Virus record (IMG/VR): IMGVR_UViG_3300008216_000009 | Location: 31,607-95,606 of that record | Origin: a virus | Reading direction: 5' to 3' (one strand) | DNA length: 64,000 bases | In this document: positions 2,084 through 64,000 of the stretch, one piece after another | How positions within the stretch are numbered: the first letter of the stretch is position 1 | How the letters are laid out: each line of letters opens with the position of its first letter | Made by a program: the position numbers and the translations under genes | The notes under the pieces: generated by a model | Seen by the model: the letters and a program-made list of their open reading frames with translations, nothing else | What the model was told of the DNA's origin: nothing | The model's database searches: none

Positions 2084-2093
2084 GGAGAATTGA

Positions 2094-3008: not shown

Positions 3009-3048
3009 AGGTGTTTCAAAAAGCTCACTTTTTTCGGTGAGAAATTGT

Positions 3049-3077
3049 TTTACATTTAACATTTAAATAGGTATACT
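3049..3077 (+). promoter_or_regulatory. putative sigma70-type promoter for the head module, TTTACA-N17-TATACT
   Basis: Intergenic, AT-rich, 17-bp spacer. Confidence 0.6.
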
Positions 3078-3114
3078 CAGAATAATCGCTGTGGCGGTAA
3101 GGTAAGGTAAGGCT

Positions 3115-3354
3115 ATGGAATGGGAAGATCGGTTTGATACATCTGTAAAGGCGTTAGTTAGGGAAATACTGACTATTTTGGAGAGTGTTATAGTTGTGGA
3201 TAGCCAAAGGAAGGCTCTCCGTACAATAATGCGGAAAACAATTTATACTATTACAGATAACTTAAAAGAGGATATTATTTCTGAGGTCGGACCCATAAAA
3301 CCTGCTTCTGTCGCAGATAAGCAGGAATTCACGTTCCCCAGAGGAGAACAGTAA
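3115..3354 (+). CDS. hypothetical protein
   Basis: Helical 79-aa ORF, GGTAAGG-repeat RBS, coupled to the next gene. Confidence 0.7.
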   Translation: MEWEDRFDTSVKALVREILTILESVIVVDSQRKALRTIMRKTIYTITDNLKEDIISEVGPIKPASVADKQEFTFPRGEQ

Positions 3355-3929
3355 TGCCTGATCACCAGGGAAGACAGGATTTTCCAGAGGTAGCCGACGA
3401 AAAAATTAATATAGGTACTTTTAACGAGTGGGCACCTTTGGGGGTTTCAGATATATATTCTCCCAAGGAGGAGCCAAAGTTGCGGGATCAGGTGATGCTT
3501 GATCAAGCTGCCATGCTCAAAGAAATTGTAAGCATGATCGAAAGTTTTAGTGGCAAGAAGTCCACCGCTAAGAAAGTTGAAGATCCCTATAAAGGGTCTT
3601 CAATCAAGAAGGCCACCGGGTGGACTATGGATAAGCAAAATCCTGAAGTTCAAAGTGAGGGCTTCGGAAATGATGCTTATTATAGACCTCCCAGTAAGAA
3701 AGAACTTTCCACAGGTCATGCTTCTATGAGGGGCGAAAAGTCTGAATGGGATACTCATGGTAAGCCAAAAACATCTGGGGTTAATAAACAGGAGTTTGAA
3801 AAGTCTGGATTTGAGATGTGTGCAAAGTGTGGAGACAAGTTGGAGAAGGGCGGTGGTTGCCCTCCCTGCGACGAAAAAGAAACTTTAGAGAAGTCAATTG
3901 TTAAGTCTATAAATACTTATCTGAGGTAA
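3354..3929 (+). CDS. putative internal head protein
   Basis: Charged, several Phi-x-K-[SAQ] sites, CAKC/CPPC ribbon, C-terminal IVKSINTYLR tag. Confidence 0.5.
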   Translation: MPDHQGRQDFPEVADEKINIGTFNEWAPLGVSDIYSPKEEPKLRDQVMLDQAAMLKEIVSMIESFSGKKSTAKKVEDPYKGSSIKKATGWTMDKQNPEVQSEGFGNDAYYRPPSKKELSTGHASMRGEKSEWDTHGKPKTSGVNKQEFEKSGFEMCAKCGDKLEKGGGCPPCDEKETLEKSIVKSINTYLR

Positions 3930-3934
3930 ATATA

Positions 3935-4567
3935 GTGCCAGCCGAATCTGAGTCCCAGAGAAGGGCTGCTGGTGCGGCTTTAGGAGCAAAACGGGGTGGT
4001 TCTGTTAAAAGCCTTCGTGGGTCTTCTAAAGGTATGTATGAAAGTATGACTGAGGACGAACTGGAAGATTTCGCCAGCAAATCCCTTCAGTCGTCTCCTT
4101 CCAGGGAGGGAGAACCAAGCCACGTCCCTTCGTTGCCTAAAGCTACTGAATCTTTGAGTACCTTAGATAAATCTGCCAGTTTAAATATTCTCGTTAAGAC
4201 TATAGATTTTTACTTGAAAGAGGGTTCTCAATCCTCTATTGCCGGGTTTACCTCTAAGAATTTTGATATTTGTCCTAATGCTGTAAATGTTTTCAGGAAG
4301 TTAGAGGGTAGTGTCAATTCGAAGACGAAAGACTCCATTGTATTTGCGGCTAAGGCGACTGATGATTTTTTGGGCGTAGAGAAAAAGGCAGTATCAAGCA
4401 AGTCTGCTTCTCTGGATGATATAGAAAATATGGTAAACCTCATGCAAGCCGCCCATTTTCATTCTGGAGAGGTAAGTAGTCTCATAGGAGAAGATCTATC
4501 TACCGATTTTTCCTTTTCTACTGGGCATCTTATTACGGTAATGGGGCATTATGAGTCGGAACAGTAG
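3935..4567 (+). CDS. DUF3008-domain fusion protein, putative internal head protein
   Basis: MPAESESQRRAAGAALGAKRG...MYESMTEDELEDFAS matches DUF3008; second domain starts near SKNFDICP. Confidence 0.7.
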   Translation: MPAESESQRRAAGAALGAKRGGSVKSLRGSSKGMYESMTEDELEDFASKSLQSSPSREGEPSHVPSLPKATESLSTLDKSASLNILVKTIDFYLKEGSQSSIAGFTSKNFDICPNAVNVFRKLEGSVNSKTKDSIVFAAKATDDFLGVEKKAVSSKSASLDDIENMVNLMQAAHFHSGEVSSLIGEDLSTDFSFSTGHLITVMGHYESEQ

Positions 4568-6143
4568 GAGACCCCGTACCACTGTTTCAGAATTAGAAGT
4601 CTCTATCATAGGGGCTATAGATGGGTATTTTTTAAAATATGGGTGGGGCGATGAGGATTTTGTAGATGGTGACATGGGTGATGCGGGCAGATGGGTTACT
4701 ACCACTCCCGATGTTAAGGAAACTAAACAAGTAGCCTCCCCTAGTGACACTCCAGTGGAGTCCCCAGAGCTTCCAGCCGACGTTGAAATGCCAGAAGCCG
4801 TAGGTAAGGACTGGAGCAGCGGGAAAACTCCTGCCCCAGTCAGCCAGAGCTATAGCATGGACTTCTACGGCGGTGGAAATGAGGAGGATTTTGCAGCCGC
4901 CCCAGAGTGGATAACCCAGGAGCGGGAGGGTGGGTACTCCGCAGGAGCCGTTTCAACCCCGAAGGTAACATCACAACCTGTTCAAACGACGGAGGAGTAT
5001 TATGATGCTGATATTGCGGAGGAGACACTTACGCCTTATGTAGCCCCAGTATCCACTGTGGACACTTCTAGTTATGAGGATGCAGATGCTTATGCATCCG
5101 AATATGAGTCAAATATACCCATTCCCCCTACCGTAGAACCTTCTCCGACTAGTGACCTGGATTCGGATGTGGCGGCTTATGAACCTTATGATAGTCAAGA
5201 AGAATGGTTGGGGGGGTATGTAGCCCCTGCCGCAGGGTCATCATCGGTTGACCCAGTCGATACCTATTCGTCTGGACAATGGGATGATGACCCTGAGGCA
5301 GATATTCACGGAGATTTCCCTAATTATGGTGGGGGATCACCCATTACTTCCCAGCCTTCACCTATCCCTGTAGACACTTCTAGTTATGAGGATGCTGATA
5401 CCGAATGGACATATGATTTTCCTAGTCAGACAACTGACCCCCTCCCTCCTGTTAGCAATGCAGATCCTACACCCGATTATGGGGATGCTGATCAGAGCTA
5501 TGACCCGAATTTAGAGCCACTTATACCAATAACAGACAACACTGTGGGGAGTGTAGATCCTATAGATACAGTAGCTATAGGAGTTACCGATCCCGATAAT
5601 GTTGCCATAGATCATAGAGGTCCCGGTTCGTCTGGTTCTAGTGGTAATATGGGTGGTTCCTCAGGAACCATTGATAATGATCAAACCGACTCCGTTGTCC
5701 CTGGAGAACATGAAGACGACGGCGGCAACTGGTTCACGAATTTCCCAGGTAATGTTGTCGATGTTGGTGGTGATGTGGTTAGTGGTGGAAAAGATCTTGT
5801 TTCGGGTGCCTATAATACTGTCACCGATGCGGCGGGTAAGGTTTATGACCTAGCGTCTGCTGGGGTGGGCAGTGGGATTGATATCGCAGGTAATTTCGTA
5901 GATACTGCTGCATCAGCAGCAGGTTTACTGCCGTGGACTGAGTCCAACCTGAATATACATGATTCAGGCACCACATCATCCGCCAACACTGCTGTTGCTC
6001 ACCTGGGCACAGGTGGGTCTGGCCCAGGTACTCCTGCTTACATACCCGACAGGGACGGCTACGATAAGAGTAAGAGTCGTACATGGGGCCATGAAGATGA
6101 TAGTATAAAGGAAATAACCAGCTATTTAGAGCGGTACGGATAG
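4551..6143 (+). CDS. acidic low-complexity protein, putative internal head/ejection protein
   Basis: 530 aa, rich in D/E/S/T/P/G, internal VDTSSYEDAD repeats, tag-like helices at both ends. Confidence 0.55.
   Translation: MSRNSRRPRTTVSELEVSIIGAIDGYFLKYGWGDEDFVDGDMGDAGRWVTTTPDVKETKQVASPSDTPVESPELPADVEMPEAVGKDWSSGKTPAPVSQSYSMDFYGGGNEEDFAAAPEWITQEREGGYSAGAVSTPKVTSQPVQTTEEYYDADIAEETLTPYVAPVSTVDTSSYEDADAYASEYESNIPIPPTVEPSPTSDLDSDVAAYEPYDSQEEWLGGYVAPAAGSSSVDPVDTYSSGQWDDDPEADIHGDFPNYGGGSPITSQPSPIPVDTSSYEDADTEWTYDFPSQTTDPLPPVSNADPTPDYGDADQSYDPNLEPLIPITDNTVGSVDPIDTVAIGVTDPDNVAIDHRGPGSSGSSGNMGGSSGTIDNDQTDSVVPGEHEDDGGNWFTNFPGNVVDVGGDVVSGGKDLVSGAYNTVTDAAGKVYDLASAGVGSGIDIAGNFVDTAASAAGLLPWTESNLNIHDSGTTSSANTAVAHLGTGGSGPGTPAYIPDRDGYDKSKSRTWGHEDDSIKEITSYLERYG
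5061..5395 (+). repeat. 23-bp exact direct repeat GACACTTCTAGTTATGAGGATGC (5061-5083 and 5373-5395)
   Basis: Read directly; in-frame, encodes DTSSYEDA. Confidence 0.9.
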
Positions 6144-6497: not shown

Positions 6498-7440
6498 TAG
6501 GACATTTCTTCAGGGATTAGACCTAATGCTTGGGTCTTTGATACAGAAGAATGATGTTCTGGGGGAAGAACCTATCCCAGATTCAAATGGGGATGTTGAT
6601 GTTGGCTCTGTACTTGAAGATGCTGATAATGGGGCAATGGACAAGCAAAAAGATGATGAATCTTCAGAATCTGCTACATCTGAAACAGATTCACTTGAAG
6701 TCGCTACTGATCTAGGAGACAAGACCAATCTTCCTCCAGAGATGGGGCGTAAAGAGGACAAGGGCGAGGAGGGACTTGTTGACGATGGGTCAATAGCTGA
6801 GCCTATGTTACGTCGTAGGGAAATTCGAAAAGCTGTATTGGGGGGTATGGATCGTGGTGTAGATCTTTTTCAATTATGGGCTGATGTAGACAAGGTAATA
6901 GAGAAATCTTCAGATTATTCTCCTCATACATCGGATGTAGATATTTTGAAATCATTCGATTTATGTGAGTGCACTAAAACTGAGGACATAGTTGAGGGAA
7001 CCCTCGTTTATAAGATGCTTACAGATAGAGGTAGCCGACCTTCCAGTGAGTGGTGGAATGAATGTGTTACGTTTGCAAAGAGTATAGAGGGCATGGAAGA
7101 ACCTGCATTTTTTGCAGCTTTTATGTATTACGAGCCTGATAATTTCAATCCTGAGAATTTTATGAAGGGATTGAATGACACTGGGGGCACGCCGAGGGCA
7201 TCTGGACGTGGGGTATCTCACGATACCGAAATAGATGAGAATATAGGGGCGGCTGGTGGTCAGGCTATTGACGGTCTGGGTATGTCTAATGACGGAGAAG
7301 GGTTCGACAAGGAGTTTATGGAGGGCGGGGGCAACACTTCGGGCGGCTCTGCGTCTGTTAAGCATTGCAGTCATGACGGCAAGAATTTTGAAGATGAATG
7401 TGACTGCCCAAACCATGAAGATCCTGTACACAAGACTTGA
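6463..7440 (+). CDS. acidic putative internal head protein
   Basis: Many Phi-x-K sites (IQKN, MDKQ, IRKA, IEKS, ILKS, FAKS, FMKG); RPSSEWWNEC motif; Cys/His-rich C-terminus. Confidence 0.55.
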   Translation: MTGQKKPDGTIDRTFLQGLDLMLGSLIQKNDVLGEEPIPDSNGDVDVGSVLEDADNGAMDKQKDDESSESATSETDSLEVATDLGDKTNLPPEMGRKEDKGEEGLVDDGSIAEPMLRRREIRKAVLGGMDRGVDLFQLWADVDKVIEKSSDYSPHTSDVDILKSFDLCECTKTEDIVEGTLVYKMLTDRGSRPSSEWWNECVTFAKSIEGMEEPAFFAAFMYYEPDNFNPENFMKGLNDTGGTPRASGRGVSHDTEIDENIGAAGGQAIDGLGMSNDGEGFDKEFMEGGGNTSGGSASVKHCSHDGKNFEDECDCPNHEDPVHKT

Positions 7441-7446
7441 GCGTAG

Positions 7447-7475
7447 TTTCGCTTCGACGTGATCGAAGTGAGGAG
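7447..7475 (+). promoter_or_regulatory. RNA hairpin occluding the SD of the protease polyprotein
   Basis: TTTCGCTTCGA-CGTGA-TCGAAGTGAGG forms an 11-bp stem (3 G-U pairs) that includes GAGG of SD GAGGAG, ahead of ATG 7479. Confidence 0.5.
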
Positions 7476-7478
7476 CAT

Positions 7479-10400
7479 ATGACACAAGAGCTACTTAAAC
7501 ATGTTGATGAGATGATTGAATCTGTGATTGTCTCAGAGCTTGGGTTCTTTCAGGACAATAATTACACCATCGATCTTTCTGTGAAGACTGAAGATGGTGA
7601 GGATTCTTTTTTTGTGCGCCGGAACGGTGCTGTTCTCTATGCTGGACCTGACGGAGCGAAGGCCGCTTCCCAGTTTTATTCTCAGATAGCTCAGGTTCAT
7701 GAGGATGACCAGAACGGTGCTGATCCAGATTTTGCTACTCTGAGAGAAATTTTAGAGGCTCGAAACCAGCATGTGAAAGAGGCTCTTTCTCAACTGGGCC
7801 ACACGGATTTGGCCCGGTCTTTGAGTAAACTTACTTTCAAATCTATTGATAATGAATGGCACGATATATTCTTTTCTCCCGATGCTACAGAGGAGATAAT
7901 CAAGGGAGAGCGTGTAGAGAAGCTTATACCTGCCGTTATCGGAGCGGCTTTAGGGGCAGTGGGCCAGGTTGCGGGTACAGTAGTGGATGCTGCTACGAAT
8001 GTGGAAGCTTCGGATCCAGATGAGACCAAGCCAAAAAGTAAGGCTCCTAAAGTGGGGGGTGTAGATAAATCTGTTTCTGACAATCTTATTTACACTGAGG
8101 ATGATCGTTCTGAGGAAGCAAAAGATTTAGAGAGTCCAGCCAATTTTGATGAGGCTGCCAGCAAACCCAATCTTATTATGCGTCAGGAGCTTGAGAACAC
8201 TTCTGAATACCAGGGAGTGTTCTTCTTCATTAAAAATTCTTTTGAAGAGCTTCTCTTTGTGAAGCGCACTGGTGCTCCTTATTGGGAACTTCCCGGCGGA
8301 TTAAAGAAGGAGGACGAATCTCTTAGAGATGCATTGAAGCGTCAGATTGCCCTATTAAACTTAAAAGCACGACAGGCAAAACAACTTGGCTCTGTCAGTA
8401 TGGGTGAGGGCCATGTAAGTGGGATGATATTTGCGGTATCGGTGTCTGGTCAGATAGTTCTTCCTGATAAATATGATTCACTCACATGGGTCTCCGTAGG
8501 AAGTTTGGCGAATGTGCCATTGGCCCCTGATTACAATATCGATGAATTAAAGGACATGATCACTACCTCTATGGATGATCCTGAGGATAGGCTTTATCTG
8601 TCCACCAATGTTAGCAATGATATTTACAAACAACGAGATATAACTGATTTAGGTGATCCATTTCAGTCGGTGGGCGATAATTATGTTCCTCCTGGGGTTC
8701 GTGGCTCAGTTGTTCAAGATGGGGTTCGTGGAGGTGTCCAAGCTAGAGAGATAGGGGACAATCTGAAACATCTTCGTAACCAAGTCGGACTTAAACACCA
8801 TGAGGAGTCTGAGGGTGTTTTTAAGTACCCAGACAATAATCCAATACCTGAGGGTGAGGATGAAGATCTGGATCCCGGAAGGGAGCATGTTGAGGAGGAG
8901 AATAACCCCTATCTACATAAGAGTCGGGACGGTTCTCGACAGTCATATATGGGTCTTAGACAGTCATATATGGGCCTTAGACAGCCAGTAAATAAGGAAT
9001 CTCCTGTGTGGGAGACGGAGACCGATAGTGAGTATGTCGAGAAATTCGATACCCAAGGTTGGGATCCCGGTCACCCAGAAACAATAAATGATAGTCGCAT
9101 GCAACCTAGAGGTATTCCTCAGGAGCGGCTAAGTGAGCGTATTGAGAAGGGTGAAGATGAGGGAATAGGGGCTAAAAGAACACTTGTAAAGGTTAATGAG
9201 TACTCTAAAAGACTTATAGATATTTTAGGTGACAATGAAGAAATAGATTTTTGGGTTCTCGATAAGATTTCTCGTACAGGCTCCTATATGAGCGATATAT
9301 ATCATCATTTGACTGATTCTAGGAAACTTGATGTTCAGCAGAAAGCATATCCTTTCACGGTAGACAGGCCGGAAGATATGCAGGATCCGATTTCTGCTCA
9401 ACGCAAAAAAGACAAATTATCTCCTGCCAGTGAGGAAGCTCTTTCCAGTGCAGAGGCTGGGACCGGTACTCAAGCTTTTAGTTCTGGAGCAGTAGTAGAT
9501 TTACCTGAATCTATGGATGCTGAGATAGGTGTTCAACCGCATGCCGTACAGGGTTCTGGATCTGAGGGTGTTGAGGGGGGTGGAGATGGGAGCATAGATA
9601 TGATTCCAACTCCAGATGCCTCTATGAATATTGATGAGGCCGAGAAGGCTTCGGAGTTCGATTCAAGATTGAGATCCCTTAGAAAGAAAGATCCACTTGT
9701 TAGAAAAGATACTGTTGGATCATATGATGATCACCATCATGATAGATTATCCAAAGTAAATACTTTTGAATCTAGGTTGGTTGAGTTAAAAGAAGGTGGA
9801 GGTGATGGTGGGGGAGGTGGCAGTTTTGGTGGGGATGGCGGTAGTGGAACTGCTATGACCTCTGGTGGAACTCACACTGCTACATATGGTGGTGGGGGGA
9901 CTTCTACTGCTTATGACAGTTCTTTGAAGCCCAAATCAGCCGAAGTAACTAAATCTGATTCTGACAAAGAAGAAGAAAAAGAGTCTGAAGTAGAAACTAT
10001 ATTTGAGAATGTAGCTGAAACTGTAGATAGCAGTTTGGAGAAAAATGCTGATGTTTACGGCACTACGGAGGGGCTATCTCAGCTACCAGCCCCAGACGTG
10101 CCTGAGCTTGGACAGACCAAAGATCCTAAAAAATCTAATTCAATAGATAGGCATAGGCCGGGGGATTCAGAGTCTAGAAGAAGGATGGACGGTAGGGGTG
10201 TTCGTAATGAACCGTTTCCTCCTGGGCAGGAGCCTATAGGGGATGATGTCAGTAATTTAGTTATTGCTGAGAATGAGGATACTTACAAGCCCGCAGAGCT
10301 TGAAGAGAGGGCCGAGAACGAAATTGTCCGAAGAAAATTCATAGACGAAGATTCTCATAGGATTCGTACTAATGATATGGCTGCGGAGCAATATACGAAT

Positions 10401-11129
10401 TTATCCTATGATACTCGTCTTACACCTGAGAACCAGCTAGGCGACGCTGTTTCGGGTGTTGTAGCGACTTTGCTTTCTCCCATGCTGGCAAAGAGTGGAG
10501 ACGATCCTAGTAATATAGATGTGGGTCTTATGAAAGTCCTGGTTCCCGATGGTATCGAGAAACAGACTGATTTCATGGACACCAAGAATACTCTGGTTGT
10601 TGCTGGGTGGGGGAATTATTACGTCATAGATCAAGAGGGCCACAGAATTGGTATAGAGGGAATGAGGCGAGCTTTAGAGGAATTTTTAAAGCGTCCAGAA
10701 TATGCCAATGTGAATATTTTCCATTCTGGGATACAGGTAGGTCAGATTCTTCCAGAATTCACTGATGAGCACGGTAAATTATGGAAAACTGAAGTAAGAC
10801 CTGAGGGAATGTTTGTTGTGGCTGCCATTAGAAATGATCTTGAAGTTGCTCGTAAGGCTATGAGAGAGATAATGAAAGGCACTTTACGGGGATTCAGTAT
10901 TGCGGGTAATGCTAAAGATAAAGAGTTGAAGTGTGACCATGGTAAATGCTGGACCGAGGTTACAGATATGGAAATGTATGAAGTCACCCTTTGTGTTCAG
11001 CCTATGAATCAAAATTCTTACATAACAGACATTCTTCAAATGCCGGACGCACAAGTATGCCCAGATTGCTATGAGGGTGTTCAAGTTGAGTACGATTCGA
11101 ACCTTAATATTCAGGGTGTTAGTATCTAA
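7479..11129 (+). CDS. prohead maturation protease polyprotein (degenerate Nudix domain, acidic linkers, C-terminal HK97/herpes-fold serine protease)
   Basis: C-terminal domain LVVAGW...IDQEG...NIFHS..QVG...GMFV...GTLRGFSIAG...YEVTLC..PMN with His/Ser catalytic motifs; lies upstream of scaffold and capsid genes. ATG 7479 has SD GAGGAG (ORF track starts at 7437). Confidence 0.85.
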   Translation: MTQELLKHVDEMIESVIVSELGFFQDNNYTIDLSVKTEDGEDSFFVRRNGAVLYAGPDGAKAASQFYSQIAQVHEDDQNGADPDFATLREILEARNQHVKEALSQLGHTDLARSLSKLTFKSIDNEWHDIFFSPDATEEIIKGERVEKLIPAVIGAALGAVGQVAGTVVDAATNVEASDPDETKPKSKAPKVGGVDKSVSDNLIYTEDDRSEEAKDLESPANFDEAASKPNLIMRQELENTSEYQGVFFFIKNSFEELLFVKRTGAPYWELPGGLKKEDESLRDALKRQIALLNLKARQAKQLGSVSMGEGHVSGMIFAVSVSGQIVLPDKYDSLTWVSVGSLANVPLAPDYNIDELKDMITTSMDDPEDRLYLSTNVSNDIYKQRDITDLGDPFQSVGDNYVPPGVRGSVVQDGVRGGVQAREIGDNLKHLRNQVGLKHHEESEGVFKYPDNNPIPEGEDEDLDPGREHVEEENNPYLHKSRDGSRQSYMGLRQSYMGLRQPVNKESPVWETETDSEYVEKFDTQGWDPGHPETINDSRMQPRGIPQERLSERIEKGEDEGIGAKRTLVKVNEYSKRLIDILGDNEEIDFWVLDKISRTGSYMSDIYHHLTDSRKLDVQQKAYPFTVDRPEDMQDPISAQRKKDKLSPASEEALSSAEAGTGTQAFSSGAVVDLPESMDAEIGVQPHAVQGSGSEGVEGGGDGSIDMIPTPDASMNIDEAEKASEFDSRLRSLRKKDPLVRKDTVGSYDDHHHDRLSKVNTFESRLVELKEGGGDGGGGGSFGGDGGSGTAMTSGGTHTATYGGGGTSTAYDSSLKPKSAEVTKSDSDKEEEKESEVETIFENVAETVDSSLEKNADVYGTTEGLSQLPAPDVPELGQTKDPKKSNSIDRHRPGDSESRRRMDGRGVRNEPFPPGQEPIGDDVSNLVIAENEDTYKPAELEERAENEIVRRKFIDEDSHRIRTNDMAAEQYTNLSYDTRLTPENQLGDAVSGVVATLLSPMLAKSGDDPSNIDVGLMKVLVPDGIEKQTDFMDTKNTLVVAGWGNYYVIDQEGHRIGIEGMRRALEEFLKRPEYANVNIFHSGIQVGQILPEFTDEHGKLWKTEVRPEGMFVVAAIRNDLEVARKAMREIMKGTLRGFSIAGNAKDKELKCDHGKCWTEVTDMEMYEVTLCVQPMNQNSYITDILQMPDAQVCPDCYEGVQVEYDSNLNIQGVSI
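8938..8984 (+). repeat. 21-bp in-frame tandem duplication (RQSYMGL x2)
   Basis: GACAGTCATATATGGGTCTTA / GACAGTCATATATGGGCCTTA / GACAG, one mismatch. Confidence 0.95.
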
Positions 11130-11220: not shown

Positions 11221-12279
11221 ATGGCAAATCGCCAAGAAGAACTGTTGCCTATTCTCAAGGCTCTTCGGGAGTATATATCCAAGGAGTATGCGGTAAATTA
11301 TCCCCCGCATGTCCGTGGTGAAGATGCTTCCAACAAGGAACTTCCTGCTAACTGGCAGGATAAGCTCGACCCCATCACGGGTGGAGACACTGTGGGTAGG
11401 GACAAATTCGGATCTCAGGGCCAGAATACGACAAAAGCTGGCTCACAGTCCGAAGATGCCTATATCCATAAGTCTGAATTGGAGCAGATCCTTAAGGATT
11501 TTGTTTCCAAGCACTACGTGGATGGTATGGACGTTCAGCAACGTGGCGCACGTGGCGACAATGCTGGATTTGCCTACCCGGGTGAAGAGCGAAGAGTTCC
11601 TGAGGGCTTAGAGAAGCACCATGGGGAAGAGATGGAGAAGAACGAGGAAGAGTTGAACGGGAACGGATTCCCGCCGCCAGCAGAAGAGGAAGAGAATGGT
11701 CTTCCTACTATGGAAGAGGCTGGCGAAGAGGAAGAAGATGACGTGCTGGGCGAGGAAGAGGAAGACGAGGAGATAGAGGGCGTTGCTGCGGGCAATATGG
11801 CCTATAGCAAGGACCGAGCAGTTTCAAATCTTCTCAAAGATATTAAGGGTCTTCTAGTTCAGAAGCAGACCGAGAGGTCTGAGTTTGGCAGTCTTAAGAA
11901 AGAGTTGGACATCATAAAGAAGTCCATGCCCAATCAGATCAAGCAGGGTGTCACTGCTGGGATGAAGAAGTTCAATTTGAATCCTAGTGTTAGTGATCAG
12001 GCTACAAGGGTTCCAGTTGGGGCGGCTTCCCCTCCTGCAGCCTCGCCTATGCCTGACAAGAGAATCGGCGTTGAGGGAGAGTCTTTTGCTAAGACGGATC
12101 CCGAAGCCAATTGGGCAGCCCAGGAACAGTTTACTAACGCCGTTGAGACGATTTTGAGCGGTAACGACGCTGACGACATTCGAGGCACCTTCAAGAAGGT
12201 TAACTCGATGAGGAATCAGTCTGGTGAGCTTACGCCGCAAACCCTGTACTACTATCCTAGGAACGGGGGCGCACAGTAA
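11221..12279 (+). CDS. capsid scaffolding protein
   Basis: Between protease and MCP; Glu-rich linker, coiled-coil segment, many Phi-x-K sites. Confidence 0.75.
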   Translation: MANRQEELLPILKALREYISKEYAVNYPPHVRGEDASNKELPANWQDKLDPITGGDTVGRDKFGSQGQNTTKAGSQSEDAYIHKSELEQILKDFVSKHYVDGMDVQQRGARGDNAGFAYPGEERRVPEGLEKHHGEEMEKNEEELNGNGFPPPAEEEENGLPTMEEAGEEEEDDVLGEEEEDEEIEGVAAGNMAYSKDRAVSNLLKDIKGLLVQKQTERSEFGSLKKELDIIKKSMPNQIKQGVTAGMKKFNLNPSVSDQATRVPVGAASPPAASPMPDKRIGVEGESFAKTDPEANWAAQEQFTNAVETILSGNDADDIRGTFKKVNSMRNQSGELTPQTLYYYPRNGGAQ

Positions 12280-13595
12280 TGACAACGCAGAATGATCTCT
12301 CCATAGCTGAATATATCGGTGCTGCCGAGCGAAACCTTCGCTCAAGTCTGATGCCGCCTGGGTACTTTGCTAAGCAGACGTACCTGCAGGTATCGGACGT
12401 GTTCACGGCGACTTATGGCCGCAAGGTCTGGGACGCATTGAACAACCAGACCCGGTTCTGGAACATACTTCGAAAGGTACAGTGGGGTCCCACAACTGGT
12501 TGGCGTGTTCGCTCCGACAGGGGTTCGAACCGCTCTCGACCAGTGACTGAGACTGGAGCACTTCCTACTGTCGATGTCTCTGCCTATCAGGCAGTCGATT
12601 CGGCACCAAGGATTATGGCTACAGACTTTGGTGTCTCACTCAAGTCCCAGATTATGTCTGGGTTGGAAGGTGGCATGGGCGACAACCTTGCGGTTGAGCA
12701 AGAAGCTGCTGCAAGGGACCACATCAAGGAGCTTAACTCTGAGCTTCTTCTTCGCTCCAACGGAATTGTCACCACAGGTGGTGCCTCTGCTACAGGGGCA
12801 GTGTTAGGTGCTGGTAATACGTTCCGAATTGGTGACACCATTAGTGACACGGGTCTCAGTGATGCTTCAAAGGTAATTTCGGGCATCTCTGGTAACGTTC
12901 TTACTTATACTGGTGGTGGAAACCTTACAGACGGTGCTATCGCTTATGCGAAAGCCCGTGCTGGTCTGACCTCGATTGATGACATCGTTGAGCAGGACGC
13001 TCGTACTATTGCGGGTGTTACCCTAGGCTCTGGCATCGGGGCAGATGTTTACAACCAGTCCACTAGGACGGCGGGTGCGTGGAATGCTGCTGCAACTGTT
13101 CTTGCGAATAGTGGCACAGGCAGGAACCTTACCCTGTCTCTCCTAGACCAGGCCATTAGGGAAGTTCGTATCAATGGTGCGGATCCCGACGTAATCCTTA
13201 TGGGTTACGACCAGTTCGACAGGCTTTCTTCACTCCTACAGGCGCAGCAGCGTTACATGGACTGGGGCGAGTTCGTTGTAAAGGTTGGCGACGAGAGTAC
13301 CCTTCCCGGTTCGCATGCTGGGTTCCAGGTTTCGACCTATAGGGGTATTCCAGTCATCGTGGATCCCGACATCCAGACTTCCTACACGGCTGCGGATGCC
13401 GAACTTGGCTCTAACGTGTACGTGCTTGACACGAGGTATCTGGAACTCGCTATTGCTGCTCCTACGCAGTACATCGATAACAGGGACTTCTTCCAGGCGA
13501 ACGCCTTTGTCCTTCGTGGACTCTTCTACACCATTGGTGAGTTGAGGGCACTTCGTATGGATACACACTCCAAGATCACGGATTTGAATGCTTAG
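12279..13595 (+). CDS. major capsid protein (HK97 fold)
   Basis: YGRKVW..LN, GWRV, LTLSLLD, G..PDVILMGYD, LLQAQQR, AGF.V.TY.GIP, Y.LDT.YL, PTQY, GEL motifs; followed by a terminator; likely propeptide cleavage at FAK/Q. Confidence 0.9.
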   Translation: MTTQNDLSIAEYIGAAERNLRSSLMPPGYFAKQTYLQVSDVFTATYGRKVWDALNNQTRFWNILRKVQWGPTTGWRVRSDRGSNRSRPVTETGALPTVDVSAYQAVDSAPRIMATDFGVSLKSQIMSGLEGGMGDNLAVEQEAAARDHIKELNSELLLRSNGIVTTGGASATGAVLGAGNTFRIGDTISDTGLSDASKVISGISGNVLTYTGGGNLTDGAIAYAKARAGLTSIDDIVEQDARTIAGVTLGSGIGADVYNQSTRTAGAWNAAATVLANSGTGRNLTLSLLDQAIREVRINGADPDVILMGYDQFDRLSSLLQAQQRYMDWGEFVVKVGDESTLPGSHAGFQVSTYRGIPVIVDPDIQTSYTAADAELGSNVYVLDTRYLELAIAAPTQYIDNRDFFQANAFVLRGLFYTIGELRALRMDTHSKITDLNA

Positions 13596-28800: not shown

Positions 28801-30425
28801 GTAGCGGCGGCTCTGTCTCGCATCTAATCTCAAACACCGGGACGGCTGCGAATGATGTGGCGTATCTGGAGTTAAAGACCGCAGGGGTTACTCACGGGAC
28901 ATATACGGCTCCACATGTTCGCTTTACCACTGGCGCAGGGGCATCACCACATAATTGGTACACAGGCACTGACCTGACGCAGTACGAAGCTGACACGTTC
29001 CATATCGGGACTGGCACTACCGTTGGGAGCAATGCGAGGGTTTCCATCAGTAGCCAGAATGGTCGTAATGTACCGGGGTTCCGAATAGACCCAACAGACT
29101 GGACTTCTAGCGGGACGACCAGCGATGTGGGTGGGTACACGTTCAGAACTCTGGCGCATAACATCACTTGGAGCAGCGACCCAGGTGATAACAATGGGGC
29201 GAAGTGGCAGATTAACTCGATGGCGGGCGGGACGATGGTGAACAGTTCCTCCGCTCAGACGTTTGGTTCGGCGATGGGAGCGACTACACTTCACGTCACC
29301 CCGCCTTCGGCTGGTTCTAACATCACGTTCACCCACGCTTCGGGTATCAATATCGCCAACGTCGCATCGGCAGGGACGACCACGAATCTGTACGGCATAT
29401 ATATTGATGACCTGAGTGGCGGTGCCACTAACTATGCTATTTATACCGCTGGGAGTGATGCCGTTAGTCTTGGTGGTGTCGTAACTATTCGTGGTAGTCA
29501 ATCGTACCTTGAAGTTTTGGAGGCTCCTCAAAATAATGGTGTAACCATAAAAGGGAACGCTAATCCAGCCTTGCTTATTCAAGAAGACAGTCAAGAACAG
29601 TGGATACTCTATGGTGCTGGTAGTGGGTTATATTTGAAGCGGGATGGGACTATACAGTGGGCTTTCTTTGCAGATGGTGACATGCACCCCTACGGTCATA
29701 TAAGGATGAAAAATAGTAAAGCTATTTATGATGTAGGAGCTAGTGGTAACAACTGGACGGCAAATGCTCTGACTATTACAGGTACATATAACGGTGAACA
29801 GAGTCTCCAGGTTTGGAATACGGATAATGATGTGTCACACACAACCTCTCATTCACTGCTGTATCTGGTGACTTTTGGGTCAGGCGACTCTAAAATTAAA
29901 TACGCCACTGGGGTCAATTTTTCACATGGAATTGACCATAGCGAAAGCCGTTGGGTGCTGTCTCGTGGTCATGCTCTTGGCAGCACTGATGTCATGCGTG
30001 TTACTACTGCCGGGGCAACTACATTCGACTCCGTAGGTTCAGAGTTTACCCCTGACTATGTTTGTGATAGTTGTGGCAGGGCCGAGATAGAATCCTTTGA
30101 GTGCTGTGGCACAGTAGCATGGCATGATGATGTTCTGGCCCTCAGAGAGATGAAACTTAGCCAATCAGGTATTGACCATATGGCTAAACTTGGTGTCCTT
30201 GAGATTGATGGCCCCGATGATGCAGACCCCGGCTGGACGGGCATCAACTATCAGAAGGCGCAGTACTTCACTTGGGCTGGCATGTACCAGAACCGCCAGC
30301 GGATGGATGCTCAGTACGATGAACACGAAAGTCGTTTTGGTGAAAAAATACGGAAATTAGAAACCCTTCTCAAAAAGATGCTGGGTGAAAAAGAATATAC
30401 CTTACTCATGGATCAGATTGAGTAG
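25854..30425 (+). CDS. second fibre / receptor-binding protein (1523 aa) with C-terminal chaperone-like domain
   Basis: Repeated N.GLY.E.L..G..DYS.YTAG..PSYFGG elements; C-terminal helical/coiled-coil domain. Confidence 0.85.
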   Translation: MGISLSGLTESSTGNLTISAGSGNDVLIGNGSTQIFIDGGTDTLGIGGTAVSGSRLNIETGAVALDFITSTGTAVNVIADTVNDTSGAATLAIVPTVQIGVMTYTSTNSMTYTDTASLYIAGIPAASTNVTFTNAAYALWVDAGAVRFDDRTFWIGGIAYEFPADNGNANEMLLTDGSGNLSWSSVASASVATTVTVTDNEDTNENNLIPFVANAATSTGNHGLEMDGDFTYSPNTGRLTATQLSGTLQTAAQGNVTSLGTLTGLGLSGDISLAAAAIVWTSGATTVGSEYSIQQDSAGTDHLQFNVPSGKGFKFSINAVEEVIWSTGALAFQQATTLSTTAGNLTLSAATGADVLIGDNATILYVDGGTGTVGIGAAATAINQVKIASALETADSNMLYAYRSYTDATNNTIQGIRVEQQRGRTSAAFTGSSLGIKVTNQLADGNRQAWTRAVGGLVGVDVLLGSGGANATGTVTAAVGFNSYITMAGYGANATTTNYIGFRDAGLGNGTTTNRYGFYVAETSGTVTNNYGLYVEELTQGSSLDYSIYTAGATPSYFGGNVTLAGSSNNNTVLDIQVPGTGDPTITFTGAGTSVDWHIGVDNSHASEGLYLGKGTAVGTDAYIRLDGRYSAGSFLIGLAHDPAAITLAEASNSRLYMTYIAGNTVRFTGGTQMTSVDGSTLYVDAPSLVSGNNAAITIDAYNTIYTKTPRENDGYVALTTAAAIRISDGGNASHPAANNIGLYVESLTTGTNDYSVYTAGTTPSNFGGAIHADGAITGASSLDIAGRAAIGSGASVGATTGLHVNEQQTDPAGLVGTISYIIPTLSSGASANIFQGFRVVNDLRGNQNYTETENGAQTGNAGISIDMINRATATVTEMFGVTAHIRKFSTGAVTTAAAYKVGTWGNFNSTNAITTLSGLHVTNPTATGGITTLYGIKIDDLTTAGTEWSVYTGSAPSYFGGSVTATSTISHTGASHNHELDGSGGSVSHLISNTGTAANDVAYLELKTAGVTHGTYTAPHVRFTTGAGASPHNWYTGTDLTQYEADTFHIGTGTTVGSNARVSISSQNGRNVPGFRIDPTDWTSSGTTSDVGGYTFRTLAHNITWSSDPGDNNGAKWQINSMAGGTMVNSSSAQTFGSAMGATTLHVTPPSAGSNITFTHASGINIANVASAGTTTNLYGIYIDDLSGGATNYAIYTAGSDAVSLGGVVTIRGSQSYLEVLEAPQNNGVTIKGNANPALLIQEDSQEQWILYGAGSGLYLKRDGTIQWAFFADGDMHPYGHIRMKNSKAIYDVGASGNNWTANALTITGTYNGEQSLQVWNTDNDVSHTTSHSLLYLVTFGSGDSKIKYATGVNFSHGIDHSESRWVLSRGHALGSTDVMRVTTAGATTFDSVGSEFTPDYVCDSCGRAEIESFECCGTVAWHDDVLALREMKLSQSGIDHMAKLGVLEIDGPDDADPGWTGINYQKAQYFTWAGMYQNRQRMDAQYDEHESRFGEKIRKLETLLKKMLGEKEYTLLMDQIE

Positions 30426-30452
30426 AGAATAATTTATTTAAAGGAGGTTAAG

Positions 30453-30650
30453 ATGACAAACGATGAAGCATTAGAGATATTAAGGATTAAAGTAAATGCG
30501 GTAAATGACGCAATTAATGATATTAATAAATATAGAGCAGAATCAGTTAGCTGGCTTAATGATTATAAGACTACTGTTAAGGATTTAGTTAAAGCAAATG
30601 CAGTTACTGTAGGGGCTAACCTTTCTGCGTGGGAAGGGTTGGATAGCTAA
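30453..30650 (+). CDS. hypothetical protein
   Basis: Strong SD AAGGAGG; helical 65 aa. Confidence 0.7.
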   Translation: MTNDEALEILRIKVNAVNDAINDINKYRAESVSWLNDYKTTVKDLVKANAVTVGANLSAWEGLDS

Positions 30651-30690
30651 AAGGTAGTAAAATAATATGATAGGGGAGATGTAACTTTTT

Positions 30691-31188
30691 ATGTCTGATG
30701 TACATAATGAGGATATGATTCTTAGTTTGAACACCGCTCTTTCTAGTGTGAGAGAGGCATTGGATACAACTGTTAAAATTGAGCAAGATCCTAGTATGTC
30801 TACGAGTGATCGTAATTCCAATGTAGTTATAGTGAAAGCTGCCGTCGCCAATGCGATAAGTACTTTACAGAACTGTGGCAGTGAGAACTTTTTAGGTACT
30901 GCATCTCCCGATCCTCAGGTCACAACGCTCAATGTGATTGGGGCGGGTACTTTTGTGGCAGGTTCCGGTGATGTTAATTTACTTGCTGCGGCTGACTTTA
31001 TGGATCATAATGGGGTTGTTACCGCCACTTCCGAAGAGGTGACCGTGGTTTGGGCTAGTTCGGATAGCAGTATAGGTCCTGTAAATTCATCTAGTGGTAT
31101 TTTTACTCCGTTAGCTCCAGGAAATATCACAATCTCTGCTAGATATGTTAATGGAGCAGTCGCTAGTGTTCCGATGATTGTTACATAA
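30691..31188 (+). CDS. Ig-like (Big_2) domain protein
   Basis: VVWASSDSSIGPVNSSSGIFTPLAPGNITISARY matches Big_2 W.SSD..vA.V..G.vt....G.a.Ita. Confidence 0.8.
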   Translation: MSDVHNEDMILSLNTALSSVREALDTTVKIEQDPSMSTSDRNSNVVIVKAAVANAISTLQNCGSENFLGTASPDPQVTTLNVIGAGTFVAGSGDVNLLAAADFMDHNGVVTATSEEVTVVWASSDSSIGPVNSSSGIFTPLAPGNITISARYVNGAVASVPMIVT

Positions 31189-31250
31189 GATGAAGTATAA
31201 TGTTGTTAGGTTAGGGACGGAATTATTTTATAAAGGTTGGAGGTAAGGAC

Positions 31251-31829
31251 ATGGTTACGGGAAAAGCAGATATAAATGTAGTGTCGGATGATGAGGATAG
31301 GGGGCCATTGGTAGAGGATGAGGATTTTGCTGCAGCGAAAGCTTCTATAGAAGAGAAGGCAGAGAGTCTTGGTGACAGTCCTGAAGATGTACTGGCCTTT
31401 TTAGAGGCCGATGAGGATGAGGAATCAGAGGAGTCGTATTACGATTCACGTGTCCCTATTGCTAGGGATATACGTCCTGTGATTGCGGCATGGCATGAGT
31501 ATAAGAATGCTATGGCGCAGGTCAAGACAACTTATAAGTTGTGGAAAATAGAAGCTAATGATCTTGGTGGAGAAAGTGATCAGCGTCGAGATGCAATAGT
31601 ACAGAATGCCGCTAGGATTAAAAGGGCTTTGGATGTTATTGAAAAAGAACTTAAGGAAGTATTCCCTAAGCTAAAAGGAGCCGCTTTTTTGACCCGTTCT
31701 GAAATCATAGTTTTGCCTAGGTGGATGCATAAATTGTTAGGAATAACTATTGAAGCCAGTGCCGATGAACGTGAATCGGCCCAGGCAGACCTACAAAAAC
31801 AATTGGATGGAGCAAACGAAGCAGAATGA
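31251..31829 (+). CDS. hypothetical acidic/helical protein
   Basis: SD GGAGG; ATGA overlap with the next gene. Confidence 0.7.
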   Translation: MVTGKADINVVSDDEDRGPLVEDEDFAAAKASIEEKAESLGDSPEDVLAFLEADEDEESEESYYDSRVPIARDIRPVIAAWHEYKNAMAQVKTTYKLWKIEANDLGGESDQRRDAIVQNAARIKRALDVIEKELKEVFPKLKGAAFLTRSEIIVLPRWMHKLLGITIEASADERESAQADLQKQLDGANEAE

Positions 31830-61432: not shown

Positions 61433-61665
61433 TGGTAGAGATATATACAAGTATGGGTTGAGGTCCCTGCCACATGACGAAAGCGTGGCTTTCGGGCAAG
61501 GGAATCTCTTTTACTGAATTTAACATTTCTGTGGATATGGATGCTGGTGCACGTCTGCGAGATTTGGGGTACAGGTCAACACCAGTAGTTCGCATAGGAA
61601 ATGAGTTTATTGTTGGCTACAGTCCCCAAAAACTTGAGGCTGCTTGCAATACATATGGGCTATGA
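61432..61665 (+). CDS. nrdH: glutaredoxin/NrdH-like redoxin, probable selenoprotein (U-G-P-C; TGA at 61459-61461)
   Basis: MVEIYTSMG*GPCHMTKAWLSGKGISFTEFNI...LGYRSTPVVRIG...VGY; the TGA sits exactly at the first Cys of CxxC; ATG overlaps the upstream stop (TGATG). Confidence 0.85.
61460..61508 (+). promoter_or_regulatory. bacterial-type SECIS-like hairpin
   Basis: GCCAC (61469-73) pairs with GTGGC (61485-89), apical C-GAAA-G loop 17 nt after TGA; outer TCCCT/AGGGA pairing. Confidence 0.65.
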
Positions 61666-64000
61666 CTCAAGAAAAATATAGACTATCTGAGATTCTGACC
61701 CTTCTTGCCTCTACAGAGTATCTATATAAGCAGGGGATAACTTCTCACGTCCCCCCAGAAAAACGCTACTACCACCCTGAAGGGAAACATACAGGACCCA
61801 GGGGTGGTCGTTTTTCTATTATTGGGGTAGAGACAGATCCTCATGGAAATCCACTTGGTCAGCCCGTTCCCACTCTGGCTCCGGGCATGGAGAATGAAAG
61901 TGTACGGGCCTGGATAGAGAGGGATTCCGAAGCTCAGCATGTTCTAAACACCCTATCTCAGTACGGCGATCCCTATGTGGTCGGTGGGGGCGTTAGAGAT
62001 GCATTACTCGGAGTACCAAGTAAAGACGTAGATATTGAAGTTTATGGTTTGACCATCGATGAGCTATCAGACATTGTCCAAAAGGATTTGGGGGGCAAGC
62101 AGAATCAGGTAGGCAAGATCTACGGTGTATTCAAAGTTGGGGATTTTGATATCTCCCTACCTAGGACTGAGACTAAGGTTGGAGATAAGCATACCGATTT
62201 TGATGTGGAGCCTAACCCTAATTTATCTCCAGAATTAGCGGCTAGACGTAGAGATTTTACGATCAATGCGTTGATGTACGATTATAAAAATGACAAAGTG
62301 TTGGATTTTTTTGGGGGCATACAGGATTTAGAAGCGAAACGTATCAAACATGTAAGCCCGGAAACCTTTGTTGAGGATCCACTCCGTGTTTACAGGGCTG
62401 CACAGTTTGCTTCTCGGTTTGATTTTTCTATAGATCCATCTACCCAGGAACTGGCTCGTTCGATGGATTTGTCTGAGATATCTAATGAGCGGGTTTTTGG
62501 GGAATTCGAAAAGTTATTATTGAAGTCCCCTACCCCATCTACAGGTATACAGGCACTGGATGATATGGGAGTGCTGGATACCCAGTTCTCAGAAATCTCT
62601 GCACTGAAGGATACTCACCAACGTAGTGATTACCACGCTGAAGGTGATGTATTTATTCACACTAAGATGACTCTGGATAAAGCAGCAGAGATTATCCAAC
62701 GTTTTCCAGATGAAAAAGATAAAACCATTATCATGCTGGCTGCGTTATGTCATGACCTGGGTAAGCCTGAGACCACTACCTCAGATGGTAGGGCTATCGG
62801 TCATGAGGCAGCGGGTGTTCCCATAACAGAGGAATTCCTGGGCAAGTTAACTAATGACAGGGACATCTTAGCCACAGTTCCCTCTCTAGTTGAGAATCAC
62901 CTCAAGCCTCTTCAATATCATCGAGACGGGGCTTCAGATGCCGCTTTCAGGCGATTAATCAATAAGCATGGGACTGAGTACCTAAATCTTCTTTCTGCTG
63001 TGTCTGAGGCCGATGCAAGTGGAAGATTAGTTAAAAATCCTGATGGTTCGATGACTGAGCATGGAAATGAGGAGAATGTTTGGTTCCGGGATCGAATTAA
63101 GCAGGTTTCTGAGGCTGGTGGATTAAAAGAGGGGAAGATAGCTCCCCTTCTAACAGGCAATGATCTGAAGGGTCTTGGCTTTAAAGAAGGGCGTGAGCTT
63201 GGAGACATCCTTCGTGATGTTCAAGGGCAGCAGGAAGAGGGAGAGATAGCTTCTGCTGATGAAGCTTTGGATTACGTTAGAAATAAGTATCAATTTGCTA
63301 CAGAGCATTTATCTAAACAGGGAATAACTCCGTCCCAAGAGTGGACTTCAGGATTTGTTCCACCTGAAAAACGTTTCTACCATATGGAAGGCACCCATAC
63401 GGGTCCTAGAGGCGGCAGATTTTCTATCATAGGTACAGAAGTAAATGAACATGGTGATTCCTTAGGTCAACTTTCACAGGCACAACCTCCTGGCCCTCAT
63501 GATATAAGCGAACTTCCGATGCCCCCTCAGCAGGGTAACATCCTTCCACAGCCGGAAGATGCTGTTATTTCTTCAGAAGCAGAAGAACGAGAGTGGATTG
63601 AAGATAATATTGAGTATGATTGGAGTATGGCTGATGAGGGAGAGGAAGTTGCTCGTGTTATATGGGGGTCAAAGGCTGGAGATACTTTAGAAGTATATGA
63701 TTTAGACAGTGTGGGATATGCAGATGGGCCATCCGGGCTTAGAGGCATACATGTAGGTGATCCAGATTTTTGGAGACAGCAGTTACAAGATGATTATGGA
63801 TTAGATGCTGCTGACGCACAGACCATAAAAATACGTACTGAGGAGGGAGATGCGTATTTACCTGATCAGCAATATAACATACCTCCCGAAGTTGGAGAGG
63901 CTGGAGAGGCAAACGTATTAGTCACAAAACGTACTCAGCTAGAGTACGGTAAAGATTGGGTGTTTGAGGGGGAGAGTTTTGAGCCTAAGCCTCAACAGGC
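61662..64000 (+). CDS. cca: polyprotein: leader + class II CCA-adding tRNA nucleotidyltransferase with HD domain + leader + further domain; 3'-truncated, absent from ORF track
   Basis: ATGA overlap, frame open to window end; VGGGVRDALLG...KDVDIEV, RRRDFTINA, DFFGG..DL, EDPLRV.R..QF..RF, ERV..E..K, H.EGDV..HT, LCHDLGKP, GHE. Confidence 0.92.
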   Translation, partial: MTQEKYRLSEILTLLASTEYLYKQGITSHVPPEKRYYHPEGKHTGPRGGRFSIIGVETDPHGNPLGQPVPTLAPGMENESVRAWIERDSEAQHVLNTLSQYGDPYVVGGGVRDALLGVPSKDVDIEVYGLTIDELSDIVQKDLGGKQNQVGKIYGVFKVGDFDISLPRTETKVGDKHTDFDVEPNPNLSPELAARRRDFTINALMYDYKNDKVLDFFGGIQDLEAKRIKHVSPETFVEDPLRVYRAAQFASRFDFSIDPSTQELARSMDLSEISNERVFGEFEKLLLKSPTPSTGIQALDDMGVLDTQFSEISALKDTHQRSDYHAEGDVFIHTKMTLDKAAEIIQRFPDEKDKTIIMLAALCHDLGKPETTTSDGRAIGHEAAGVPITEEFLGKLTNDRDILATVPSLVENHLKPLQYHRDGASDAAFRRLINKHGTEYLNLLSAVSEADASGRLVKNPDGSMTEHGNEENVWFRDRIKQVSEAGGLKEGKIAPLLTGNDLKGLGFKEGRELGDILRDVQGQQEEGEIASADEALDYVRNKYQFATEHLSKQGITPSQEWTSGFVPPEKRFYHMEGTHTGPRGGRFSIIGTEVNEHGDSLGQLSQAQPPGPHDISELPMPPQQGNILPQPEDAVISSEAEEREWIEDNIEYDWSMADEGEEVARVIWGSKAGDTLEVYDLDSVGYADGPSGLRGIHVGDPDFWRQQLQDDYGLDAADAQTIKIRTEEGDAYLPDQQYNIPPEVGEAGEANVLVTKRTQLEYGKDWVFEGESFEPKPQQ
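61713..63470 (+). repeat. duplicated ~50-aa leader (TE.L.KQGIT...VPPEKR.YH.EG.HTGPRGGRFSIIG.E...HG..LGQ) at 61713-61862 and 63300-63470
   Basis: Translated directly; copies flank the CCA enzyme. Confidence 0.92.

Follow-up and report, generated by a model that had tools for sequence, protein, structure and literature searches.

A class II CCA-type nucleotidyltransferase set between repeated leaders in a polyvalent-type polyprotein of an uncultured marine tailed phage

The stretch of DNA considered here, which we call the window, is 64,000 nucleotides long and is the final 64 kb of the 95,606-bp IMG/VR record IMGVR_UViG_3300008216_000009. At its 3' end an open reading frame (ORF) encodes the first 779 residues of a multi-enzyme protein of 1762 amino acids (aa) from an uncultured marine tailed phage. 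Sequence comparison with its relatives establishes that this polyprotein has a cassette build, in which a family-specific junction or leader is followed by a cargo, and that cargos are exchanged between close relatives at the junctions. In our opinion it is best read as a variant of the polyvalent-protein class with repeated junctions.

The ORF listing of the window places the frame at 61644..63998 on the + strand, open at its 3' end. Its start codon is likely ATG 61662, because this codon overlaps the stop codon of the preceding glutaredoxin gene (ATGA) and gives an M-T-Q-E-K N-terminus that is common to all homologues. The polyvalent-type polyprotein gene (61662..64000, +) is 3'-truncated at the contig end after 779 of its 1762 codons, and what remains is 100% identical to residues 1-779 of the full-length protein, P0001, which occurs on six JGI/ENA contigs, the longest of 105 kb. 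The preliminary description, made from the letters of the window, had noticed that this ORF is missing from the gene track and had treated it as real; the ORF listing together with the identity to P0001 confirms that it is. The polyprotein does not continue at the contig start, where every frame meets a stop within a few codons, and the contig lacks a terminal repeat; hence the gene is simply truncated by the contig end. An exact 32-mer from the end of the window had no match on other viral contigs. P0001 runs in the order leader, CCA/HD enzyme, leader with a truncated helix, acidic domain X, a domain with H-x-S / Y-F-T motifs, leader, helical region and a domain resembling ADP-ribosyltransferases (ART) with an R-S-E triad. 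Extension beyond the contig, which the preliminary description had proposed as a way of counting further leader and domain units, thus adds a third leader, at about residue 1074 and with a candidate K1085-Q1086 junction, and its cargo.

The first cargo is a divergent but complete nucleotidyltransferase of the class II CCA type with an HD domain, and its activity is predicted. We identify it as such because Pfam, NCBIfam, PDB and PHROG matches agree with motifs that can be read directly, so that the complete CCA/HD enzyme claimed earlier for this ORF is indeed there. The class II nucleotidyltransferase head domain lies at 61974..62345 (+, residues 105-228; PolyA_pol, PF01743, E 1.7e-21), the neck/body domain at 62421..62600 (+, residues 254-313; PolyA_pol_RNAbd, PF12627, E 1e-7) and the HD phosphohydrolase domain, with C-H-D-L-G-K, at 62649..62939 (+, residues 330-426; PF01966, E 3.9e-8). 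Both metal-binding carboxylate motifs, G-G-G-V-R-D and D-V-D, are readable in the head domain, as are the nucleotide-selection motifs R-R-R-D-F-T-I-N and E-D-P-L-R. RRD and EDxxR motifs define the class II CCA-adding family. Among NCBIfam models 'multifunctional CCA addition/repair protein', NF008137, scores best (E 7.5e-57; positions 4-350 of the 409 in the profile, which cover head and HD), CCA-adding enzymes in the PDB (3h37, 1miv) match at E about 1e-18, and phrog_2244 (tRNA nucleotidyltransferase) matches at E 7.9e-77. The NF008137 score is 192.9 bits and does not reach the equivalog cut-off of 451; by its sequence the enzyme is a divergent relative of the E. coli Cca type and not an equivalog. 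With that type and with phrog_2244 it shares a class II head carrying GGxVRD, DxD, RRD and EDxxR and a C-terminal HD domain, but it differs from them in its score (193 against 451 bits) and in standing between leaders within a polyprotein rather than alone. Jumbo phages are known to carry CCA-adding enzymes as separate RNA-repair genes (PMC7824862).

The enzyme is flanked by two copies of a leader, at residues about 8-70 and 546-612 (numbered from the ATG), which are the sole GPRGG/PPEKR sites in the six frames of the whole genome. The leader consists of two parts, an amphipathic helix that ends in E-[YH]-[LMF]-x-K-Q and then a His/Gly/Arg module of ~40 aa, VPPEKRxYHxEGxHxGPRGGRFSxIG. In leader 1 the helix, L-S-E-I-L-T-L-L-A-S-T-E-Y-L-Y-K-Q, is at 61683..61733 (+), with the proposed cut between K23 (which ends at 61730) and Q24, and a helix is predicted for the equivalent stretch of P0002; its GPRGG module (VPPEKRYYHPEGKHTGPRGGRFSIIG...GQ) is at 61749..61859 (+) and is modelled in P0002 as short beta strands (pLDDT about 78). 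At junction 2 there is a helix remnant, A-T-E-H-L-S-K-Q, at 63297..63320 (+), with the proposed cut between K552 (ending at 63317) and Q553, and the GPRGG module of leader 2 is at 63357..63467 (+). The duplicated leader described earlier therefore stands as far as two copies are concerned, with the correction that the second (KYQ-FATEHLSKQ) has lost most of the helix in comparison with P0016 and P0018. It is followed by a Pro-rich spacer, P-G-P-H-D-I-S-E-L-P-M-P-P-Q-Q (63489..63533, +), which also comes after type A leaders in P0002, P0003, P0016, L005 and L007, and by acidic domain X (63534..63998, +; about 153 aa, pI about 4.05), which has no detectable relatives and ends at a K-P-Q-Q(-A-E-E) linker, that is, at the contig end.

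The two leaders are 63% identical as proteins. Within the 40-residue core 29 residues are identical, and the same codon is used at only 9 of these (20/29 differ); because so few codons are shared, the conservation is at the protein level, as the preliminary description had concluded from the many synonymous differences in the leader DNA. This is the pattern of an old duplication held by purifying selection on the peptide.

When all copies are compared, a larger junction unit becomes apparent: an optional beta-strand / N-W element with a Lys-rich stretch, the helix (consensus S-[ND]-D-L-P-E-L-L-T-L-L-A-A-x-E-Y-L-x-K-Q), and one of four related modules, A to D. Module A is the form given above, module B reads E-S-E-W-x-R-F-x-D-W-T-W ... 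Y-H-x-D-G-x-H-x-G-x-x-G-G-x-Y-D-V-I-G, and leader 1 of the window is without the N-terminal extension. The GPRGG module alone is probably not the targeting signal; it is the helix that is universal, with the module occurring in four variants. An AlphaFold2 model of the complete P0002 unit, from an alignment of 19 sequences, shows a helix and, within the GPRGG module, two short strands, but no compact fold (pLDDT 58.6), and as modelled the leader resembles a peptide motif more than a domain. Apart from the leaders (pI about 8), no segment of this acidic protein (pI 4-5) is basic. Sequence searches of Pfam, PHROGs and the PDB gave no match for domain X, for the R-S-E ART-like region or, with the LPD families of Pfam included, for the leader, nor did the ESM Atlas for the leader. 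The single-sequence AlphaFold2 model of domain X was unusable (pLDDT 38.5), and the Atlas gave a weak ART-PolyVal lead (0.86) for residues 625-1060. We also observed a second recurrent boundary linker, [PS]-Q-Q-A-E-E, in up to five copies per polyprotein (P0016, P0019, P0021, L002, L005, L007; in the window at 63987-63998). The window ends exactly on a boundary of this type, which may be a protease site, a point of recombination or a plain linker.

The leader family is small, marine and rare. A profile of the two leaders gave 14 matches against 1.84 billion representative proteins, a search of 90% clusters added nine further leader-bearing members, JGI metagenomes contributed five further leader loci, and in IMG/VR the leader alignment found L002 only, besides the present record. 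With the window protein, P0001, P0020 or an alignment of topoisomerase IB leaders as query, IMG/VR gave no match, and the leader is absent from all 50,697 GenBank phage records searched. P0011 (E 1.9e-7, five repeats), one of the 14 matches, was considered as a family member and rejected as a false positive, being an unrelated repeat protein.

The modular leader-plus-cargo arrangement that had been suspected from the window, and that a leader never found before varied cargo would speak against, is borne out by these relatives: over about 25 proteins or loci, at least eight types of cargo follow the leader. The CCA/HD cargo occurs in P0001, P0016, P0018 and L005, and the topoisomerase IB catalytic core (Pfam Topoisom_I core) in P0012, P0015, P0017-P0021, P0023 and L007. 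Pfam further recognises ART-PolyVal (PF18760) in L007 (E 1.6e-8), P0019 and P0021, and gives weak matches for a GNAT cargo in L007, a kinase-like cargo in P0005 and a GP88-like cargo in L002. An HExxH peptidase-like cargo in L005 has a weak Zn-peptidase match and a HELAH motif read directly. A helical region with an R-S-E ART-like domain is found in P0001, P0008-P0010 and P0022, where the motifs were likewise read directly and Pfam has no match. Several further domains of no assigned type also follow the leader. In P0001 there is no Pfam match to a signature domain, and the H-x-S / Y-F-T motifs were noted by eye, next to the weak Atlas lead (0.86).

The position of the leader follows the number of cargos: it is N-terminal in single-cargo proteins (P0005, P0008, P0012, P0020, P0023) and between cargos in multi-cargo proteins. 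A type B module always stands before the topoisomerase IB core, irrespective of what lies upstream, and therefore the module travels with the cargo downstream of it. Moreover, identity within the CCA/HD cargo amounts to 84-94% in P0016, P0018 and L005, and yet their downstream cargos differ, which is direct evidence of cassette exchange. Two or more disparate effector domains thus share one polypeptide, the nucleotidyltransferase (NTase) and HD domains in the window, with the R-S-E ART-like domain added in P0001 by motif, and the leader-sharing relatives combine ART-PolyVal, GNAT, topoisomerase IB, CCA/HD and DUF192. The DUF192 domains, at the C-termini of P0009 and P0010, come after a helix-only junction without K-Q and are the one cargo type that departs from the pattern of K-Q plus GPRGG. 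A second protein with a leader, P0017, combines a Cys-rich domain of no assigned type with a topoisomerase IB; it and P0215, a 1762-aa member of the P0001 cluster, are both reported from a 32,898-bp ENA contig. One phage may thus encode two such polyproteins, possibly adjacent.

The residues around the K-Q pair resemble a processing site. Of the 32 distinct junctions with a module behind them, 29 have E at P5, 27 have Y or H at P4 and 30 have L, M or F at P3; P2 varies, and at P1 there are 31 K and a single R. K-Q is kept where the helix has been deleted (window junction 2, P0006, L005) and is absent where no GPRGG module follows (C-terminal helices and the helix before DUF192). The preliminary description had linked the leaders (LYKQ, LSKQ) through a Phi-x-K-Q motif to the capsid protein (FAKQ) and to the front of a protease domain (IEKQ), and we located all of these. 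F-A-K-Q, a candidate maturation site, is at 12366..12377 (+), residues 30-33 (within G-Y-F-A-K-Q, 28-33) of a major capsid protein of the SU10 type (gene 12279..13595); among 32 homologues, with identities as low as 51%, K32 never varies and conservation of Q33 is at least 90%. No relative of this protein was found in the PDB that could show its mature N-terminus. I-E-K-Q is at 10554..10565 (+), 8 residues before the protease domain of a 1230-aa NUDIX-protease polyprotein (gene 7437..11129), and its Lys is at least 90% conserved in 27 homologues with variable neighbours. The domain itself, an S78-like prohead serine protease and the candidate processing enzyme, occupies 10587..11099 (+; phrog_9427, head maturation protease, E 1.3e-8); its match to PF04586 (E 1.3e-3) is below the Pfam cut-off, and its homologue P0213 carries PF04586. 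These alignments fit a Phi-x-K specificity with a loose P1' for the S78-like prohead protease, and make cleavage between K and Q by that enzyme plausible.

In our opinion the most likely mechanism is cleavage at Phi-x-K-Q combined with delivery in the virion, and of this combination, reasoned from sequence, we are about half convinced. The leader helix would be a procapsid-targeting or propeptide element, and the S78-like prohead protease would cut after the Lys of the motif, common to the capsid N-terminus and the front of the protease domain, so that each enzyme would keep the basic GPRGG module as its newly formed N-terminus. In this way a CCA/HD enzyme would be at hand on entry to rebuild damaged tRNA 3' ends. 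That the injected enzyme would counter tRNA-damaging defence before viral gene expression was proposed in the preliminary description and is conjectural. Functionally the polyprotein would be grouped with the phage polyvalent proteins, as a battery of effector enzymes delivered with the DNA. It is further possible, and we consider it doubtful, that the helix-K-Q-GPRGG leader is a portable delivery code, such that any enzyme behind it would be loaded, released by the prohead protease and injected. Exchangeable pre-made effectors (tRNA 3'-end repair, ARTs, topoisomerase IB) would in that case enter before viral gene expression.

Cleavage with virion delivery has to be weighed against a considerable number of unfavourable observations. 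The capsid region around K-Q is conserved throughout, so the conservation of K-Q there is not diagnostic, and the nearest cultured capsid proteins are those of haloarchaeal viruses, at about 27% identity. At the protease boundary the P1' residue is Q only in close kin and M, S or A elsewhere. The Phi-x-K-Q motif is short, and it turns up 12 times in 16,621 non-head residues and 7 times in 3,384 head-module residues, an enrichment of only ~2.9-fold with a post hoc p = 0.03. In the AlphaFold2 model of P0002, K-Q falls within the helix and close to its C terminus, with low confidence. The same junction is found in L007, whose TerL and portal genes are unrelated, so it would need to be cut by proteases of different head modules. 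A hidden Markov model (HMM) of the junction helix from other phages matches only the polyprotein in this genome, and none of the scaffold, capsid or other head proteins. Pfam finds no MuF or portal domain in the polyprotein, unlike in many polyvalent proteins. The gene is the last of the replication/RNR/glutaredoxin array, which is not the usual late place of virion proteins, and the only strong sigma-70-like promoter nearby is at 48407, heading the replication genes, with none found that belongs to the polyprotein gene. In L007 the polyprotein is followed by small ORFs and then by TerS-like, TerL and portal genes, a neighbourhood that would favour virion delivery but is equally compatible with the end of the preceding operon. 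The position of the gene fits either the last place before a packaging module or the last of a replication operon, and virion membership is not settled by it.

Some of these observations would be expected if the protein were never cut. It would then be a giant uncleaved polyvalent protein, in which the junctions are structural or interaction linkers (e.g. for nucleic-acid binding or docking) that tether the enzymes, and K-Q is part of the module; such a protein may still be packaged whole, like the N4 virion RNA polymerase. We consider this somewhat unlikely. It accounts for the fact that the whole 60-100-aa junction is conserved and not K-Q alone, for K-Q lying within a predicted helix, for basic leaders in an acidic protein, which fit DNA or RNA binding, and for the same junction in phages with unrelated packaging modules, and some polyvalent proteins are indeed packaged unprocessed (PMC5512222). 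It accounts less well for a variable P2 between a fixed P1 and P3, which is the pattern of a protease site, for a K-Q that outlasts deletions removing the helix, for the recurrence of the P3-P1 pattern at the capsid N-terminus and the protease-domain boundary, and for the element being at the extreme N-terminus of single-cargo genes, as a propeptide would be. The genomic position would in turn be natural for a cytoplasmic polyprotein that is not packaged, is expressed with the replication and nucleotide-metabolism genes and has its enzymes act in the infected cell, the leaders recruiting them to a common site or serving another protease, e.g. the HExxH domain of relatives. This we hold to be unlikely, even given the place downstream of RNR, the ATGA coupling to the glutaredoxin gene, the missing promoter, the HExxH peptidase-like cargo in L005 and the existence of stand-alone phage CCA-adding enzymes as ordinary RNA-repair genes (phrog_2244; PMC7824862). 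Against it, injected polyvalent proteins have this same set of cargos (ART-PolyVal, R-S-E ART-like, GNAT, kinase-like, MPTase-like; PMC5512222), it is not obvious why cytoplasmic enzymes should be fused behind a repeated propeptide-like leader, and in L007 the gene is near terminase and portal genes. That we are dealing with an assembly chimera or a decaying pseudogene, with the repeat as an assembly artefact, is effectively refuted: the ORF does run off the contig end in the window and in L002, and the L005 gene is split across two frames, but the identical 1762-aa ORF is found on contigs from both JGI and ENA, related ORFs of 1171-1442 aa are intact, and the repeats differ at many synonymous sites.

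Among known systems, the closest in composition are the polyvalent proteins of Iyer, Burroughs, Anand, de Souza and Aravind (2017), mosaic phage proteins with 2-15 disparate domains, ART-PolyVal, GNAT, kinase, NTase and MPTase among them, which are predicted to be injected and of which some have an assemblin-like peptidase at the C-terminus (PMC5512222). The present proteins are likewise very large mosaics of unrelated enzyme domains (ARTs, GNAT, kinase, Pol-beta-superfamily NTase, Zn-peptidase) in tailed phages; ART-PolyVal, typical of the class, is found in L007, P0019 and P0021, and the NUDIX-protease protein of this phage ends in an assemblin/S78-like peptidase as described there. They differ in having no MuF, portal or other known anchor domain, in their repeated, conserved junction of 60-100 aa, for which Pfam, LPD families included, has no match, and in the location of the gene after replication and RNR genes. 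PMC5512222 makes no mention of CCA ('CCA' occurs 0 times), of a repeated inter-domain junction or of a cleavage motif common with the capsid protein.

For the proposed processing the nearest parallel is phage T4, whose internal proteins and Alt, an R-S-E ART and an enzyme injected with the DNA, have a capsid-targeting sequence that is removed by the prohead protease gp21 (PMC9026906, PMC9958956). There, too, the N-terminal leader is short and helical and closes with a protease consensus that the capsid protein also has. In contrast to T4, the leader here is repeated within one chain, so that several cargos would be set free by the proposed processing, Lys and not Glu is the proposed P1 residue, and the module of ~40 aa would stay on the cargo. 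The ejection or inner-body proteins of phiKZ, 201phi2-1 and SPN3US have propeptides of 20-254 residues cut at a shared motif, some at several sites (PMC10052503). Those are N-terminal propeptides of separate gene products, whereas an enzyme chain joined through identical junctions is not described in PMC10052503. Finally, in polymorphic toxins (PMC3482391), as here, a short conserved junction marks the point at which unrelated cargo domains are exchanged. Those toxins are bacterial, secreted and have one variable tip together with an immunity gene, while here the cargos are serial, the protein belongs to a phage and no immunity genes are seen. The VENN motif of CdiA and the Rhs motifs are conserved motifs that demarcate swappable C-terminal cassettes.

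If cleavage with virion delivery is correct, this would be the first tRNA CCA-repair enzyme known as a pre-packaged phage effector, and damage to tRNA ends would meet the phage at entry. A simple sequence rule, leader plus Phi-x-K-Q, would then describe how polyvalent proteins are loaded and cut into working enzymes, and a short tag of 25-100 aa would be at hand for trials of packing foreign proteins into capsids. Should no cleavage take place, the exchange of effector-domain cassettes at a defined junction is still comparable to that of polymorphic toxins, and topoisomerase IB and CCA/HD are added to the known cargo repertoire. The immediate reach of the family is limited by its rarity (14 clusters in 1.84 billion representatives) and its uncultured status.

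As to the remainder of the window, head genes occupy about 3-14 kb, tail genes 15-48 kb and replication genes (DnaB, clamp, DNA polymerase) 48.5-58 kb, followed by class II RNR, glutaredoxin and the polyprotein, all on the + strand. The ATGA overlap with the glutaredoxin stop is at 61662-61665 and suggests translational coupling; L002 and L005 have a gap of ~230 nucleotides instead. L002 has the same synteny from RNR to the polyprotein, and its contig again breaks within the gene. Promoter scans upstream of the polyprotein in L002 and L005 were uninformative. In L005 the polyprotein is split over two overlapping frames (1128-1682 and 1606-5520) within the CCA head domain, the cause being either a frameshift or faulty sequencing.

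Family models for TerL and portal (phrog_2, PF03237, PF03354, PF17289 and PF04860) matched nothing in the whole record. Because neither is recognisable, and because contigs of 105 and 130 kb carry the same proteins, the 95,606-bp record is probably incomplete despite a CheckV estimate of 100%, and the packaging genes may lie beyond the polyprotein gene. At the expected place of the portal the window encodes (4551-6143) a very acidic 530-aa protein of low complexity, rich in Gly, Ser and Asp, without PHROGs or Pfam match. The scaffold N-terminus (L-L-P-I-L-K-A-L-R-E-Y-I-S-K ... Y-P-P-H-V-R-G) resembles the junction helix by eye, and this likeness was set aside, being without statistical support in the HMM search. 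The 1230-aa protein at 7437-11129 has its NUDIX domain at residues about 261-379, long Gly-rich low-complexity stretches and the S78-like protease at its C-terminus; it has about 70 homologues of 700-1260 aa, many with NUDIX, and a K-Q-R-D-x-S-D-L-G-D-P-F-Q-S-V motif is conserved after its NUDIX part. Just upstream of the window, at 29732-31303 of the genome (L008:2733-4304), a 523-aa AAA+ ATPase (phrog_8638, E 5e-109) opens the + strand block.

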